Shown here piece after piece: positions 42,637-48,765 of a stretch of DNA of 64,000 nucleotides; position 1 is the first letter of the stretch, and each line of letters starts with the position of its first letter. Source of the DNA: Escherichia phage ECp13; the sequence record PP274704.1; one strand, written 5' to 3'. The notes beneath the pieces are model-generated. The model ran no database searches. It was given only the letters and a program-made list of their open reading frames with translations, and was not told the origin of the DNA. Made by a program: the position numbers and the translations under genes.

Positions 42637-42720
42637 GAATTATTTGTTATTATTAACTCATATCGCACTGATTAATACCCTCTATCATCAAGGGTTCTTG
42701 TTTGAGAGCCTTTGTTAATA

Positions 42721-42781
42721 ATTTTGGTAGAGCGCCTGATTTGGGATCAGGAGGTCCAAGGTTCAAATCCTTGTATGGAGA
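42721..42781 (+). pseudogene. tRNA-Pro(UGG) 3' fragment (5' acceptor and D-arm missing)
   Basis: Intact anticodon arm (CCTGA-tttggga-TCAGG, anticodon TGG), variable loop, T-arm (CAAGG-ttcaaat-CCTTG) and 3' acceptor TATGGAG; no complementary 5' acceptor or D-stem upstream. Confidence 0.5.
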
Positions 42782-42783
42782 CT

Positions 42784-42883
42784 GGAGGCGTGGCAGAGTG
42801 GTTTAATGCACCGGTCTTGAAAACCGGCAGTCGCTCCGGCGACTCATACTAGGTCGTAGGTTCGATCCCTACTGCCTCGACCA
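42784..42883 (+). tRNA. tRNA-Ser(UGA), type II with long variable arm, CCA encoded
   Basis: Acceptor GGAGGCG, D-arm GCA-gagtggtttaa-TGC, anticodon arm CCGGT-cttgaaa-ACCGG (anticodon TGA), variable stem GTCGC/GCGAC, T-arm GTAGG-ttcgatc-CCTAC, 3' TGCCTCG-A-CCA; immediately follows the Pro fragment as in the T4 Pro-Ser pair. Confidence 0.6.
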
Positions 42884-43051
42884 AACAAGAAACCGGGTCG
42901 CTACCGGTAAGTCGTCGGACTGATGTTCCCTGGAGTATAGTTCCTCCCACAGTTTTACTGTGTTCTGGTTCTTTACTATCACAGCTGAAACGGCGCACCG
43001 AATTATCGATTCGAGGAAATATCTTTGCCGTAAGCCGAGTAGCGTTTTTGA

Positions 43052-43143
43052 CGGAACGTTCGGATATGGTCGAGATATGGCCTTTTAAAAATATTGAGTA
43101 GCGTCAACTGCTTAATAACCGGGTTCGAATCCCGGCGTTTCGT
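43052..43143 (+). ncRNA. tRNA-like element (acceptor stem plus canonical T-arm), possible stable small RNA or degenerate tRNA
   Basis: CGGAACG (43052-58) pairs with CGTTTCG (43136-42); T-arm CCGGG-ttcgaat-CCCGG; no canonical anticodon arm; lies in a 630-bp ORF-free stretch. Confidence 0.3.
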
Positions 43144-43195
43144 ACAAACACTTGCCTTAGCAGGTGGAACCCCGACAAGGTTGCCGCAAGGCTTA

Positions 43196-43222
43196 GCCCC
43201 GACCGAAAGGTTGGGGCTTTTT
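43196..43222 (+). terminator. intrinsic terminator closing the tRNA/small-RNA region
   Basis: CCCCGACC-gaaa-GGTTGGGG hairpin followed by CTTTTT. Confidence 0.65.
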
Positions 43223-43224
43223 AG

Positions 43225-43232
43225 TATAAATA
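43225..43232 (+). promoter_or_regulatory. late promoter (TATAAATA) for the IP-like gene at 43273
   Basis: TATAAATA on plus strand, 41 nt upstream of the ATG. Confidence 0.55.
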
Positions 43233-43272
43233 TAGTAGTATATTAAATCCACGAATTAAAACAGGAAATAAG

Positions 43273-43746
43273 ATGAAATCATATGCTCAATTTTTAAATG
43301 AAGCGGTGTTAAATGAAGCATCTAGCACCGAAATTCAAGCCGTCGCAAAAGCAGCCATTGCAGCGGGTAAATATTCCTATAAAGATGCTTCTGACGAATC
43401 ACGATTCCAATTTGCTCGCGACATGAAAGCAGAAGGATTTACGGGAAATGCGGTTAGTATGGCCTGGAAAAGTCTAGTTGCTACTGGCGCTGCTTTTGCA
43501 AAGGCTTCGGGTAAACCTGCTCCTAAAGCAGATCCTAAAGCTGCACAAGAAAAAAATATCGTTAAAGGAATTATCGCTAAATATGAAGCTATCCTTAAAG
43601 AGCTTTTAGTAATCAAAACCGAAGGCCAAAAGTTAGCCCGTGCTTATAGTTTCAAAGATAATCCACATGTTCACTCTCTTGAGTATGTTGAAGACATTCA
43701 AAAAATTATTAAAGACCGCATTTGGTCTGCTAAACAAATCAAATAA
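43273..43746 (+). CDS. internal-protein-like protein with capsid-targeting-like N-terminus
   Basis: 157-aa ORF; MKSYAQFLNE-A resembles the 10-residue T4 IP targeting sequence ending in an L-x-E cleavage motif; late promoter upstream. Confidence 0.6.
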   Translation: MKSYAQFLNEAVLNEASSTEIQAVAKAAIAAGKYSYKDASDESRFQFARDMKAEGFTGNAVSMAWKSLVATGAAFAKASGKPAPKADPKAAQEKNIVKGIIAKYEAILKELLVIKTEGQKLARAYSFKDNPHVHSLEYVEDIQKIIKDRIWSAKQIK

Positions 43747-43755
43747 CATTCTTAA

Positions 43756-43782
43756 CCCCGACCAAAAGGTTGGGGCTTTTTG
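43756..43782 (+). terminator. intrinsic terminator (second copy of the 43196 hairpin)
   Basis: CCCCGACC-aaaa-GGTTGGGG followed by CTTTTT, 10 nt after the IP-like stop. Confidence 0.65.
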
Positions 43783-43914
43783 GTATCTAGGCCTTTCTGG
43801 ACCTCTCTAGGCATCATTTAGTTTATACCCTTTATAATATATTATCCTATCTTTTAATTGCCCCTCCCTGCCCTAGAATTCCCTAAAAATTTTTAAAAAT
43901 TTTTTCACAAAACT

Positions 43915-43944
43915 ATTTACATCCCTGTTCTTCCATGGTACTAT
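43915..43944 (+). promoter_or_regulatory. early sigma70-type promoter (conserved module TGGTACTATACAACTATCAACT)
   Basis: TTTACA at 43916-43921, 17 bp, TACTAT (43939-43944). Confidence 0.6.
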
Positions 43945-43988
43945 ACAACTATCAACTACTGATACAGAAAAACAACTTGGAGAATGAA

Positions 43989-44252
43989 ATGGATAATTAC
44001 GGCGAACTGTTCAACTTCTTTATGAAATGCGTTTCAGAAGATTTCGGTCGTACAGTGAATGATATTAAAGTTATCGGTCCTGACCATCCGATGTTTGAAA
44101 CTTACGCAGTAATGGGTAATGAAGACGGACAGTGGTATACTGTAAAGGTTGTGATTAACATGTTCACAGCAGAAGGTTATGTTAAACTGTCTTCTAAAGT
44201 TTACCACGATAACGACGAAATCGCAGAAGAATATTTCAATAATATGAAATAA
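43989..44252 (+). CDS. hypothetical protein
   Basis: 87 aa from ATG 43989 (GGAGA RBS 9 nt upstream); track ORF starts further upstream at 43935. Confidence 0.5.
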   Translation: MDNYGELFNFFMKCVSEDFGRTVNDIKVIGPDHPMFETYAVMGNEDGQWYTVKVVINMFTAEGYVKLSSKVYHDNDEIAEEYFNNMK

Positions 44253-44282
44253 GTTTACATAGGCTCATGATTGAGATATTAT
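44253..44282 (+). promoter_or_regulatory. early sigma70-type promoter
   Basis: GTTTAC (44253-44258), 18 bp, TATTAT (44277-44282). Confidence 0.55.
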
Positions 44283-44308
44283 GAGCCTACAATTTGAGGA
44301 AAACCGTT

Positions 44309-44839
44309 ATGTCTCTTTATACCGAACTGAATGAAACTTCCGAAAAATCTTTTGATGATATCTTATCAATAATGCAAAAACAGGTATTAGAACAGCTTAG
44401 TGAAGCCGCAAGCAATGGGCACAAGGCTTGTCGAGTCCAAAGCCCACATCGCCGCATGTATGAACGCCCTCTTATTAATTGGCTAGAAAGCGAAGGTCTT
44501 ACAGTTAAGATTTGCCCTGCTAAATTTGATGTCCCACGTATTCTTAATATTTACTGGGATAAACCGGCTGAGAAATCGGTTGAGAAAAGTGACCCTTGGG
44601 TTGTTAATGTAAAAACATGTGACAGTGGATGCTCACTTGAGGTGTCTGCTGTAATTAAAGGCACTCATGGTGAAAAATCATGGGGTTGGCCTAGTAAAGA
44701 TAAAGAAATCGTGTTAAGTGTAAAAGCTACTAGTATTAGTACTCCTATAGCTAAAAGCATTATCGCCGCCGCCGTTGAAGAAGCTGAACGAATTTGTAAA
44801 ATTAAAAATAGTTTACATCTCTTAAATAGTATGATATAA
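44309..44839 (+). CDS. hypothetical protein
   Basis: 176 aa from ATG 44309 (RBS GAGGAA); track ORF begins at a TTG at 44294. Confidence 0.5.
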   Translation: MSLYTELNETSEKSFDDILSIMQKQVLEQLSEAASNGHKACRVQSPHRRMYERPLINWLESEGLTVKICPAKFDVPRILNIYWDKPAEKSVEKSDPWVVNVKTCDSGCSLEVSAVIKGTHGEKSWGWPSKDKEIVLSVKATSISTPIAKSIIAAAVEEAERICKIKNSLHLLNSMI

Positions 44840-44881
44840 TTCTTCCACAGATTTTATTTTTAATCAACCTAAGGAAATACT

Positions 44882-45475
44882 ATGAACACACTGAAGAAAA
44901 TTGTTGAATTTATTCGCACTAAACTTGGTTCTGCTATGGCTAAAAATCTATCTGTTGAAGAACAGTATACTGCTGCAGCAGCAAAACTGCTTGATAAAAT
45001 TAAAGATCTAAAAACTGCTTCTGTTAAATCTATTAATGAAGAAAAACGTATTCGTGAACTTATTGTCGAAAAGAATCGACAGGCCGAATCAAAAGAGCGT
45101 GAAATTCGTAAACTTCTTTCCGAAGGTCAAGATGTAACAATGCATGCTAAACTCGGTTTACTATATCGTCGAACAGCTGAGCAGTTGACTACTAAGGCTG
45201 ACGGTTATGCTGAAATGCGAATTGAAATCGCCAAGAAAGTAGTTGAGTTAGATGATGCTCGCCAAGAACTTGCAGTTAAATTGGAATATATCCGTGAAAC
45301 TCGTGCAGCAAATGCCCTTGGAATTAGTACTGCCGATGATGTAGTTGAAATTGCAGCACTGACTAAGGTTGATATTGAAGATACTCTTGCTCGAGTTGAA
45401 ACCTTTAACGGTAATATTTCTGGGGTTGAAACTACCTCTGCCGATGTTCAGGAATACATTAATTCTCTGAAATAA
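44882..45475 (+). CDS. coiled-coil protein with PspA/IM30-like architecture
   Basis: 197-aa ORF; N-terminal amphipathic segment then long heptad-rich helices; local resemblance to E. coli PspA (for example LARVETF versus PspA ARFESFE). Confidence 0.45.
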
Positions 45476-45516
45476 TGATAAGGGGCTTCGGCCCCTTATA
45501 CTTGGAGTAAATAGGA

Positions 45517-46131
45517 ATGAAAATGAAAATGCAAAGTGATTTCAATTCAATGTTTGAAGAGTTCCAAAGACAGGTTGATGTTCCAGATCAATTACTAAAT
45601 GCTCTTAAGCGTATGGCAGAAGGACGTAATTACTATTGGGGGTCTTCATATGAAACTGATGAAAGCCTTTCCGGAAGATTTTCTAGAGGTAAAAAGTCTT
45701 TAATACGTCCTGGAATACTCATTAACAGTATTGAATCAATTCATTCATTGACATGTGATTTTGATGTTGAATTTACTGATTTCATTTCTCCTGAATGGAC
45801 AGTTTGTTATTTAAATGACGATTATGATTATCTTGGCGTTTATAGTTTAAGTGACGCATGGTTTAAACGTAATTTACAAAAGTCAAATTTGTTCTATATT
45901 GATACTACGGTAAAATTTCAGGGAAAGAAATATTTCTTTACTCTTATAATTGATTCTGAAACAAAGCATGAAAATAAACGTATTCTTAGTAAAAAGAATA
46001 TCTTAACTATTGTTGATGATCTTTTTGATAAATTCGTGGAAAATCCCAATTTTGAAAGCGATTTATTATTAGAAAAATTTGTTAAGGAATGTAGAGAATA
46101 TGTCAAAGCCATCACTATACCTTCCAAGTAA
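45517..46131 (+). CDS. hypothetical protein
   Basis: 204-aa ORF with GGAG RBS. Confidence 0.5.
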   Translation: MKMKMQSDFNSMFEEFQRQVDVPDQLLNALKRMAEGRNYYWGSSYETDESLSGRFSRGKKSLIRPGILINSIESIHSLTCDFDVEFTDFISPEWTVCYLNDDYDYLGVYSLSDAWFKRNLQKSNLFYIDTTVKFQGKKYFFTLIIDSETKHENKRILSKKNILTIVDDLFDKFVENPNFESDLLLEKFVKECREYVKAITIPSK

Positions 46132-46492
46132 ACCTGTGAAGTATGAATTAAAGCGTCAGATAATTTCTACTGATGTGTTAATAGGTCCTGTGGTAGCTGT
46201 ATCATTTGTGATTTTGCTGATTGCTGGAATGGTTATAGACGTTATGACTGATATTGAATCTGGTGTAATATTTGGAGCAACACTAATTCTTCCATTGGTA
46301 GTTCCGTTTTTATTAGTACCTGTAAATTGGGTAGGATACTGGTATCAAGGAAGACACTATCGTAAACGCGTACGCGAATGGAAAGCTCAGTGTAAAAAGA
46401 TTAAAAAGGAACACCAGCTTAAACTTGATATGTATGAATTTAATGAAATTATGAAATTTGTTAAGGAATCACGATGCAAAAGCCAAAACTAA
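46100..46492 (+). CDS. small membrane protein (2 TM), paralog 1 of 3
   Basis: 130 aa from ATG 46100; two hydrophobic helices; C-terminal motif KFVKESRCK shared with the next two ORFs. Confidence 0.5.
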   Translation: MSKPSLYLPSKPVKYELKRQIISTDVLIGPVVAVSFVILLIAGMVIDVMTDIESGVIFGATLILPLVVPFLLVPVNWVGYWYQGRHYRKRVREWKAQCKKIKKEHQLKLDMYEFNEIMKFVKESRCKSQN

Positions 46493-46836
46493 ATAAAGTT
46501 AAATATTCGTTTCCTGAGGCACTATTAATTCTTGCCGTATCAGCATTTGTAGCTCTTGCAGGTAGTCTTATTGGATTAATGATTGACTGTATTATTTTAA
46601 ACATCGACGGCCCAGTAATTATAGAAGAGGTTTGGAGTGAACTTCGTTATACTATAGCGATTTCATTATTTTCATTCTTTGGTACCATGTTATATTTTCA
46701 TTATGATAATTTTAAAATAAATTGGCAAAGAAAAAAGGATTACAAAATACAATTAAAGGAATATAATAGCTACATGTCTTATATTGAAAATGAATCAATG
46801 AAAGAGTTTGTGAGTGATTGTAGGAAAATCAAATGA
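46474..46836 (+). CDS. small membrane protein (2 TM), paralog 2 of 3
   Basis: 120-aa ORF; two hydrophobic helices; C-terminal EFVSDCRKIK. Confidence 0.5.
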   Translation: MQKPKLNKVKYSFPEALLILAVSAFVALAGSLIGLMIDCIILNIDGPVIIEEVWSELRYTIAISLFSFFGTMLYFHYDNFKINWQRKKDYKIQLKEYNSYMSYIENESMKEFVSDCRKIK

Positions 46837-47321
46837 TTTTAAAAACTCGCTGGTATGATTTAGATGATGGGGACGATGGCATTTCATTTGATAGAGTTGA
46901 CTGGAGCGGCTGTTCTGAAGATACAAAGAAACGATTAATTAGGGAGTTTAGAATGGGATATCAAGCAGTTAAGCCATCTACTGTAACAGATGATAAATTC
47001 GTGTGTATTCAAAATGGCCGTGCTAAGTTAACGAATGCTGATTGGTTTACAGGCAAGAATATGCTTTTATGGTATATCATTAGTCTTCCTGTGTCATCAT
47101 TCGTATTTTATTTCTTTGGAAAAAATCCAATGGATAGAATAGGAGATTGGGCTCTTTTTACTCTGCTTGTTAATATTTTTATAACAGCAGTAATATCAGG
47201 AATATGGTGCGTGTTCATTGAAATGCCATGGCGGTTACGTAGGCAGCAAAAGATTTTTGATGAAAAGAAATATACCCAAAATTTAAATAACTTTATCACT
47301 GAATGCAGGAAATTAAAATGA
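46833..47321 (+). CDS. small membrane protein (2 TM), paralog 3 of 3
   Basis: 162-aa ORF; two hydrophobic helices; C-terminal NFITECRKLK. Confidence 0.5.
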   Translation: MILKTRWYDLDDGDDGISFDRVDWSGCSEDTKKRLIREFRMGYQAVKPSTVTDDKFVCIQNGRAKLTNADWFTGKNMLLWYIISLPVSSFVFYFFGKNPMDRIGDWALFTLLVNIFITAVISGIWCVFIEMPWRLRRQQKIFDEKKYTQNLNNFITECRKLK

Positions 47322-47758
47322 AAACACTATCAGCTGGTATTATCTTTATGACAGAAGATAAAGATTTATTTATGGGACGAGTTACTGGTTCTCGTAAACC
47401 TGGAATGATGGCACATCGCTGGGATATTCCAAAGGGCCGTGTAGAAAGTTCTGATTTGAATGCACTGGAAGCTGCAAAAAGAGAATGCTCAGAAGAGACT
47501 GGTTTTATCGATTATAATTCAGACCTTCTAGAAGACCTAGGTGTATTTAAATATTCTAGTAATAAAGACTTACAGTTATTTTATTATACGATTCCAGTAG
47601 AGCATGAGATGTTTAGAAATTGCCATTGCGAGTCTTATTTTGAAAATAAAGATGGTGTTATGATTCCAGAGATGGATGCTTTTGCCCTTATTCCTCGTAC
47701 TCAGTGGCAATATGTGATGGGTCCTTCACTTTACCGAATAATGAACAGCCTCTTTTAA
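47303..47758 (+). CDS. nudE: Nudix hydrolase NudE
   Basis: Nudix box GRVESSDLNALEAAKRECSEETGF; directly upstream of e as T4 e.1/nudE; start may be the ATG at 47318. Confidence 0.85.
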   Translation: MQEIKMKTLSAGIIFMTEDKDLFMGRVTGSRKPGMMAHRWDIPKGRVESSDLNALEAAKRECSEETGFIDYNSDLLEDLGVFKYSSNKDLQLFYYTIPVEHEMFRNCHCESYFENKDGVMIPEMDAFALIPRTQWQYVMGPSLYRIMNSLF

Positions 47759-48289
<531 letters not shown>

Positions 48290-48293
48290 AGTT

Positions 48294-48323
48294 GTTTACT
48301 TTCTCCTAGAATTGTGATAGTAT
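48294..48323 (+). promoter_or_regulatory. early sigma70-type promoter for denV
   Basis: GTTTAC (48294-48299), 18 bp, TAGTAT (48318-48323); 25 nt upstream of denV ATG. Confidence 0.55.
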
Positions 48324-48348
48324 ATTAACAGTTACTTGGAGGGATAAA

Positions 48349-48765
48349 ATGACTCGTATTAATTTGACTTTAGTATCTGAACTTGCTGATCAACATTTAA
48401 TCGCAGAATACCGTGAACTGCCGCGTGTTTTTGGTATAGTTCGTAAACATGTTGCAAATGGTAAGCGGGTTAAAGATTTTAAAATATCTTCCGAGTTTAT
48501 TTTAGGTTCTGGTCATGTCACGTTCTTTTACGATAAGTTAGAATTTTTGCGAAAGCGTCAATCAGACATTATAACGGAATGCTTAAAACGTGGGTTCAGT
48601 ATAAAAGATACTGAAGTTCCTGACATCAGCGATATTCCAGCAGAATGGAAAAATGATTATAATCCATGCAAATCAGCTATTAAATTGAGCCAACAACGAC
48701 TCGATGAAAAAATTTTAATGAAGCCATACTGGTATAAATACTACGGTAAAACTATTTACATTTAA
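48349..48765 (+). CDS. denV: endonuclease V (pyrimidine dimer DNA glycosylase)
   Basis: 138-aa [31 protein letters not shown]...; length and sequence recognised as T4 endonuclease V. Confidence 0.92.
48733..48740 (+). promoter_or_regulatory. late promoter (TATAAATA) inside 3' end of denV, serving the downstream IP gene
   Basis: TATAAATA 35 nt upstream of the IP ATG at 48775. Confidence 0.55.

Follow-up and report, generated by a model that had tools for sequence, protein, structure and literature searches.

Gene e.6 of the T4-like Escherichia phage ECp13 very probably encodes a divergent PspA/IM30 (Vipp1)-family protein

The PspA/IM30 (Vipp1) family is the bacterial branch of ESCRT-III, a superfamily of membrane-remodelling proteins, and its hallmark is a helical hairpin comprising amino acids 24–142 of Vipp1/PspA (PMC8281802). 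PspA-like genes have already been noted in a few large phages; the Jug jumbo phages, for example, actively transcribe a pspA-like gene which adjoins terD (PMC12880540). The annotated phage PspAs, among them the PspA/IM30 protein of Acinetobacter phage vB_AbaM_ME3 (A0A172Q0S7), are approximately 230 amino acids in length, come from large or jumbo phages and are recognized by standard annotation. Here we describe gene e.6 in a 64,000-nucleotide stretch of the genome of Escherichia phage ECp13 (PP274704.1), referred to below as the window. Its product belongs to a family which, unlike the annotated phage PspAs, is not recognized in this way, and which we consider very probably to be a compact, very divergent branch of PspA/IM30.

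Coliphage T4 is the reference lytic phage, and placing e.6 in the PspA/Vipp1/ESCRT-III group assigns a definite function, open to test, to a gene found in some 1,180 of the phage genomes sequenced. Among the virus-encoded members of this superfamily e.6 would then be by far the commonest, and it offers a small, compact PspA variant in a tractable genetic system for mechanistic work. The e.6 family would add to a known superfamily a viral member which is new, highly divergent and very widespread; no link between T4 e.6 and PspA or ESCRT-III was found in the literature searched or in the annotations.

Gene e.6 and its relationship to PspA and Vipp1

The window derives from a Tequatrovirus, and the region around e.6 is 99% identical to that of several T4-like phages of Shigella and Escherichia. 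e.6 is a real, conserved gene. The 197-codon open reading frame (ORF) picked out in the initial annotation runs intact from ATG to TAA behind a Shine-Dalgarno sequence (Table 1), and no other ORF of at least 40 amino acids overlaps it on either strand. Its product is identical to that of T4 gene e.6 (NP_049742) at 195 of 196 residues, and the T4 gene order e.6, e.5, e.4, e.3, e.2, nudE, e is retained on the plus strand of the window. In T4 the protein belongs to the middle class, is translated from an early RNA and has been detected by proteomics (PMC9697503, supplement). The T4 record labels it "conserved hypothetical protein", PHROG 1203, to which it belongs, is a family of unknown function, and the gene is listed likewise in GenBank, in PHROGs and in the genome-wide tables published in 2025 for CRISPR interference through antisense RNA targeting (CRISPRi-ART).

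A word-indexed search was made and 1.8 billion representatives were searched exhaustively with HMMER; together these revealed a compact family whose members are all about 200 amino acids long and form 48 clusters when grouped at 90% identity, or 46 when grouped at 50%. Two alignments were built from it: a shallow one (A1) of 32 sequences, all at least 47% identical, and a deeper one (A2) in which distant members bring the total to 55 and the identity down to 18%. With A1 the Synechocystis Vipp1 protein (sll0617) appeared among weak matches in the PDB, in a collinear alignment of residues 4–142 with 4–144 (E=1.7). When A2 was run with hmmsearch against 177,635 PDB sequences, ranks 1–8 were all occupied by Vipp1 or PspA; the best match (8qfv, E=7e-5) aligned residues 1–146 with 1–147 with a single one-residue indel.

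The family was also compared by hhalign with an alignment of 25 PspA/Vipp1 sequences, comprising 23 PspA proteins from γ-proteobacteria (22 taken from genome contigs and the remaining one from the record of an E. coli genome) and two Vipp1 N-termini. It is dominated by γ-proteobacteria; when E. coli PspA served as the seed of a protein search, every relative returned was at least 86% identical, and such a set was of no use for a diverse profile. The full A2 alignment matched it at 93.8% probability (E=1.7e-7) over 195 columns, pairing e.6 residues 1–197 with PspA 1–218, while reversed-sequence controls gave 0.7–1.4%. Omission of four members which match Pfam on their own lowered the probability to 83.7%.

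When every family member was scanned individually against Pfam, five matched PF04012 (PspA_IM30). Two of them, P0066 (39.0 bits, E=8.9e-10) and P0065 (35.1 bits), lie above the gathering score of 33.9 bits; orf179 of the cultured Kuttervirus STP55 falls 0.2 bits below it (33.7 bits), and P0067 and P0068 matched with E values of about 1e-4. The attachment of this distant branch, from phages of Ackermannviridae type, to the T4-type proteins is seen in several ways: the A1 profile retrieves P0065 from the 1.8 billion proteins at E=1.8e-21, BLASTP aligns T4-type e.6 with the distant branch over its full length (24% identity, E=1e-16), a tblastn search with P0065 reaches T4 directly (E=5e-8), and PHROG 1203 holds both types together. 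Both links of the chain, from T4-type e.6 to the distant branch and from there to PspA_IM30, are strong, and homology to PF04012 was found both through intermediate sequences and by profile-profile comparison. The PspA assignment is transitive and rests on the distant branch, because the close T4-like members alone and the window protein alone give no significant signal.

The predicted structure is consistent with this placement, and not decisive on its own. The AlphaFold2 models had a predicted local distance difference test (pLDDT) score of 78 with A1 and 80 with A2, and contained helices at residues 3–22, 25–80 and 86–145, followed by short ones at 151–160, 166–170/173 and 186–196. Confidence was highest over residues 31–150 (pLDDT 83–97), lower over residues 21–30 (71–76), and low in residues 160–185. 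This predicted order is that of the helices in ESCRT-III-type proteins, and the two long predicted helices agree with those which the initial annotation had read from the sequence. Its amphipathic N-terminal segment likewise has a counterpart in the first helix, which aligns residue for residue with α0 of Vipp1/PspA and has a hydrophobic moment of 0.45 and a net charge of +3 (moments of 0.49 and 0.61 in PspA and Vipp1, respectively), only modestly above shuffled sequences (p=0.07). A Foldseek search of the PDB returned Vipp1 at ranks 1–11 (E from 2.9e-3, probability 0.96–1.00), then archaeal CdvB2, with E. coli PspA (4WHE) at rank 44. In the BFVD library of viral structures the model matched its own family first and then one unnamed 222-amino acid entry; among the named matches that followed were a "PspA/IM30 family protein" from a phage and a "Snf7 family protein" from a giant virus, the vB_AbaM_ME3 protein mentioned above being the first named neighbour from outside the e.6 family.

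Compared with PspA, Vipp1 and LiaH (PF04012), the e.6 proteins are predicted to have helices of the same order and length, with an amphipathic α0 at about residues 2–22 and a hairpin at about 25–145 as against 24–142. From the first residue onwards the alignment runs collinearly, broken only by one small indel, and the tip of the hairpin lies at the same position. The family-invariant residues A89-K90-L91 of e.6 stand opposite the PspA-invariant L86-A87-R88, and the conserved A-[KR]-x-x-L at the start of α2 corresponds to L-A-R-x-A-L in PspA. A C-terminal [IL]-x-x-L-K helix is likewise predicted for e.6, and the sizes of the two types of protein are similar (197 versus approximately 220 amino acids). 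The C-terminal region of the e.6 family has its own conserved motifs, TF-G and Y-[IL]-x-S-L-K; hhalign places YlasLK of e.6 opposite eLAaLKAK of PspA, in a register which differs between runs. The differences from PspA/Vipp1 include a sequence identity of only about 13–16% and a more cationic α0 (+3 versus −1 to +1). Furthermore, unlike cellular PspA and LiaH, e.6 is a viral gene read from a constitutive-type phage early promoter and without PspF/B/C or LiaI/R/S partners. With ESCRT-III proteins (Snf7/CHMP, CdvB) e.6 has in common the predicted helical hairpin core, and CdvB2 filaments, Snf7 and an Asgard ESCRT-IIIB were among the structural matches; it differs in having neither a MIM-type tail nor a Vps4-like ATPase partner. 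No link between e.6 and Snf7/CHMP was detected at the sequence level, and its relation to ESCRT-III passes solely through PspA/Vipp1 as the established intermediate (PMC8281802).

A number of observations weigh against the assignment or against the function drawn from it. The window protein itself gave no match to PF04012 even at E values of up to 10, and hence lies below the gathering score for family membership by direct match; it matched no PspA or LiaH model in NCBIfam and, by phmmer, no sequence in the PDB. A narrow PspA hidden Markov model scored it at 12.1 bits, as against 12.2 bits for reversed decoys, and hhalign put the probability at 0.6% when E. coli PspA was the sole target. The close T4-like members on their own reached only 6–13% against the PspA alignment (6% for A1), which makes the depth supplied by the distant branch essential. 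In the PDB search with A2 the margin over generic coiled coils was small (Vipp1 25.7 bits, prefoldin 20.9 bits). In the linker between α0 and α1 (K-A-E-D-P), A22-E23-D24-P25 are invariant in the PspA/Vipp1 alignment and K21 nearly so; the corresponding e.6 sequence, K-N-x-S-x-E-[ED], keeps only the lysine and the helix break. The α4/α5 region of e.6 is about 20 residues shorter than in PspA and is ambiguously aligned. No Pfam match to a psp or lia component was found among the neighbouring genes (43273–48765; e.8, the gene in the e.7 position, e.5–e.2 and nudE), and knock-down of e.6 in T4 by CRISPRi-ART was scored "Not Fit" (0.30), meaning that fitness on laboratory E. coli was unaffected (PMC11879866, supplement).

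The initial annotation had proposed a PspA/IM30-like, and thus ESCRT-III-like, protein. At the level of the family this is upheld by the A2 searches, by the distant members above the PF04012 threshold and by the fold; for the window protein taken alone no significant PspA profile match was obtained. The local similarity to the C-terminal region of PspA which had been noted was not recovered: the signal lies in the N-terminal three quarters of the protein (residues 1–146), and the C-terminal alignment is weak.

Table 1. Coordinates of e.6 and associated features in the window
Feature	Position	Strand	Remarks
Early promoter of e.6, sigma-70 type	44812..44840	+	-35 TTTACA (44812–44817), 17-nt spacer, TG-extended -10 TATAAT (44835–44840)
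Shine-Dalgarno AAGGA	44871..44875	+	6 nt 5' of ATG; identical in T4
e.6 coding sequence	44882..45475	+	197 amino acids plus stop; by sequence and profile comparisons, very probably a divergent PspA/IM30-superfamily protein
N-terminal cationic amphipathic helix (predicted α0 equivalent), residues 2–22	44885..44947	+	AlphaFold2 helix 2/3–22, low pLDDT
Helical hairpin (predicted), residues 25–145	44954..45316	+	α1 25–80, tip 81–85, α2/3 86–145 by AlphaFold2; hallmark of PspA/Vipp1/ESCRT-III
Shortened, divergent C-terminal region, residues 146–197	45317..45472	+	Possible α4/α5 equivalent
RNA hairpin AUAAGGGGC-UUCG-GCCCCUUAU	45478..45499	+	Starts 2 nt past the stop codon; no U-run
Possible partner genes e.5, e.4, e.3, e.2	45517..47321	+	All end in F-[VI]-x-[ED]-[CS]-R

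Expression and distribution of e.6

e.6 is an autonomous early transcription unit, and is dispensable for T4 on laboratory E. coli. Over the 5.2 kb scanned no promoter-like site was better than the one listed in Table 1, which agrees at 11 of 12 positions and possesses the TG extension. T4 has GTTTACA...TGATATTAT at the same place in spite of a divergent spacer and an unrelated upstream gene; since the promoter elements have been kept while their surroundings differ, the promoter is probably functional and belongs to e.6. The upstream ORF (44294–44839, 181 amino acids) occupies the position of e.7 and has no detectable similarity to T4 e.7 (110 amino acids) nor any Pfam match; at this site, immediately upstream of the conserved e.6 promoter, one gene has been replaced by another. 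The RNA hairpin beyond the stop codon has a minimum free energy of −15.6 kcal/mol (z=−3.2). Its core, GGGGC-UUCG-GCCCC, is kept in T4, where two positions differ, both in the 3' arm at its outer base, and the hairpin is putatively a transcript-end or stabilizing structure.

Using P0065 as the query, tblastn located relatives of e.6 in 1182 of 50,697 phage records, distributed over Straboviridae of many enterobacterial hosts and of Aeromonas, and over Ackermannviridae such as Kuttervirus STP55. The same search with E. coli PspA found just two records, both of them metagenomic phage contigs. The distant homologs sit in other neighbourhoods, near uvsX, gp41 or ligase, which indicates that e.6 moves as a cassette; conserved synteny of e.5 with these distant homologs was sought and none was found.

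In 40 records sampled across the ranking, the homologs were all annotated as hypothetical save for "putative 22.0 kDa protein", in RB69 "e.6 conserved hypothetical protein", and "host specificity protein". Many records of e.6 homologs carry the last of these names and one reads "tail completion protein" (e.g. Shigella phage ESh16, Escherichia phage vB_EcoM_FJ1 and Klebsiella phage UPM 2146). Nothing supports either label, the gene being early and not late, and both look like propagated mis-annotations.

Downstream genes and the possible role of e.6

The four genes which follow e.6 share a C-terminal motif (Table 1). For the scans this was written as the regular expression [FILVM][ILV]..[ACS]R, defined on the T4-type genes and required to lie within the last 18 residues. 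Within the 64 kb of the window it occurs in four of the 122 ORFs of at least 60 amino acids, exactly e.5, e.4, e.3 and e.2, the expectation from shuffling being 0.007 per protein. In three loci of Ackermannviridae type the only genes which the same expression picks out lie directly downstream of the PspA-like one, and relaxed versions of the motif follow the e.6 homologs in Erwinia, Serratia and Pseudotevenvirus phages. Genes with the same or a relaxed motif outside the window are found at L005 8661–9666, L003 7942–8124, L086 5222–5389, L090 5635–8536 and L087 6363–7600. The e.5 product is soluble, and those of e.4, e.3 and e.2 contain hydrophobic segments, as do many of the motif-bearing neighbours in other lineages, including the Erwinia ones scored. 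Our scans found no Pfam or PHROG family common to these neighbours, and the small membrane proteins encoded 3' of e.6 are unrelated by sequence to PspB, PspC and LiaI. The shared motif suggests that the neighbours may form a functional module and may be partner proteins of e.6.

With regard to e.2, the ORF in the window (46833–47321) specifies 162 amino acids, compared with 102 in the T4 record (L001 2153–2461). In PHROG scans it spans separate families for its N-terminal part and for its 36-residue C-terminal part, which suggests that T4 e.2 is frameshifted or split.

By analogy with PspA and Vipp1 we propose a membrane-effector mechanism for e.6, the chances of which we regard as about evenly balanced. 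Soon after infection the protein would use the cationic amphipathic helix at its N-terminus to attach to the inner membrane on the cytoplasmic side, and would polymerize by packing of the hairpins, with the C-terminal helix perhaps acting as an α5-like domain swap. The polymer would then seal or stabilize the stressed membrane and so preserve the proton-motive force; the stress comes from tail penetration, from superinfection and from the accumulation of holin, and possibly from abortive-infection effectors which target membranes. Because T4 rapidly stops transcription of host genes, the infected cell would be unable to induce its own psp operon, and the phage would therefore supply the effector itself. 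The e.2–e.5 proteins, with their common C-terminal motif, may recruit e.6 or be organized by it. That e.6 stabilizes the membrane and counters pore-forming abortive infection, as the initial annotation had suggested, is likewise something we infer by analogy. If the function is as proposed, lytic phages actively maintain the inner membrane of their host with an ESCRT-III-like protein of their own, a point which bears on energy supply after host shut-off and on resistance to defences that kill by depolarizing the membrane.

A bolder and rather doubtful extension is that T4-type and ViI-type (Ackermannviridae) phages carry a minimal "phage shock" module, in which early e.6 and small inner-membrane proteins docking through their C-terminal tails would keep the membrane energized after host shut-off, and might neutralize membrane-depolarizing abortive-infection effectors or the damage from superinfection. 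Were it correct, the module would give a function to the long-unexplained e.2–e.6 block of the T4 "hyperplastic" region.

One objection to all of this is that the resemblance to PspA is a coiled-coil artefact, the e.6 product being a long helical hairpin without relationship to PspA and with some other function, such as those implied by the names "host specificity protein" and "tail completion protein". We consider this quite unlikely. Reversal of the sequences, which leaves hhalign scores of 17–20 in place of 48–53, abolishes the signal; the collinearity from the first residue and the coincidence of the hairpin tips also argue against chance similarity, as do the two members which exceed a curated Pfam threshold and the fact that the top PDB matches by two independent methods are all Vipp1 or PspA. 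Evidence for a role in the virion or in host range was not found, and the gene is early rather than late.

Other explanations accept the homology and differ as to function. e.6 could be an adaptor or scaffold, a PspA-like hairpin polymer on which the tails of the e.2–e.5 proteins, and of their counterparts in other phages, are docked, the effect (for example exclusion, host takeover or anti-defence) being due to those proteins rather than to repair of the membrane by e.6 itself. The confinement of the motif to the genes that follow e.6, its recurrence behind the PspA-like gene in the Ackermannviridae-type loci and, in related form, in Erwinia, Serratia and Pseudotevenvirus phages, and the hydrophobic segments of most of the neighbours fit such a role, and cellular PspA and LiaH are themselves recruited by small membrane proteins (PspB/C and LiaI, respectively). 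The motif was, however, defined after these genes had been viewed; it is short, and in some lineages it is found in loosened form. No family is common to the neighbours, whose pairwise similarity is weak (E=0.05), and the motif could simply be the sign of a tail domain that has been duplicated in tandem and has nothing to do with e.6. On balance the adaptor role is unlikely. e.6 might also mimic host PspA as a decoy or regulator. E. coli PspA is a negative regulator of PspF as well as an effector, and a mimic might bind PspF, PspB or PspC and thereby hold the psp response off. It might alternatively disturb defences which use PspA as a platform: in a Bacillus type II CBASS (an antiphage signalling system based on cyclic oligonucleotides), the cyclase is held inactive by Cap2-mediated conjugation specifically to PspA and is freed on infection (PMC11153139). 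The homology and the early expression, which would suit a takeover or anti-defence function, are in keeping with this proposal. An identity of about 13% to E. coli PspA, with the conserved surface motifs not kept, is nevertheless a poor basis for mimicry; repression of PspF would be redundant if, as we assume, T4 shuts off host transcription anyway; and the link between CBASS and PspA is known from the Bacillus system and not from the enterobacterial hosts of these phages. Mimicry is accordingly judged very unlikely. Taken as a whole, the reading of e.6 as a T4-type protein of the PspA/IM30 family acting as a membrane effector is the explanation we favour, with moderate confidence.

Other features of the region

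The tRNA cluster of the window (42700–43250) is much reduced in comparison with that of T4, which contains eight tRNAs plus segB. ARAGORN found no tRNA between 40000 and 44000, and Rfam tRNA matches were obtained at 42710–42781 (30 bits) and 42784–42880 (49 bits); the nearest relatives hold about 1 kb more DNA at this point. Between the tRNA remnant and e.8 lies an ORF of 157 amino acids (43273–43746) with no Pfam match, which is flanked on the plus strand by terminator-like hairpins with T-runs at 43200–43223 and 43756–43785.

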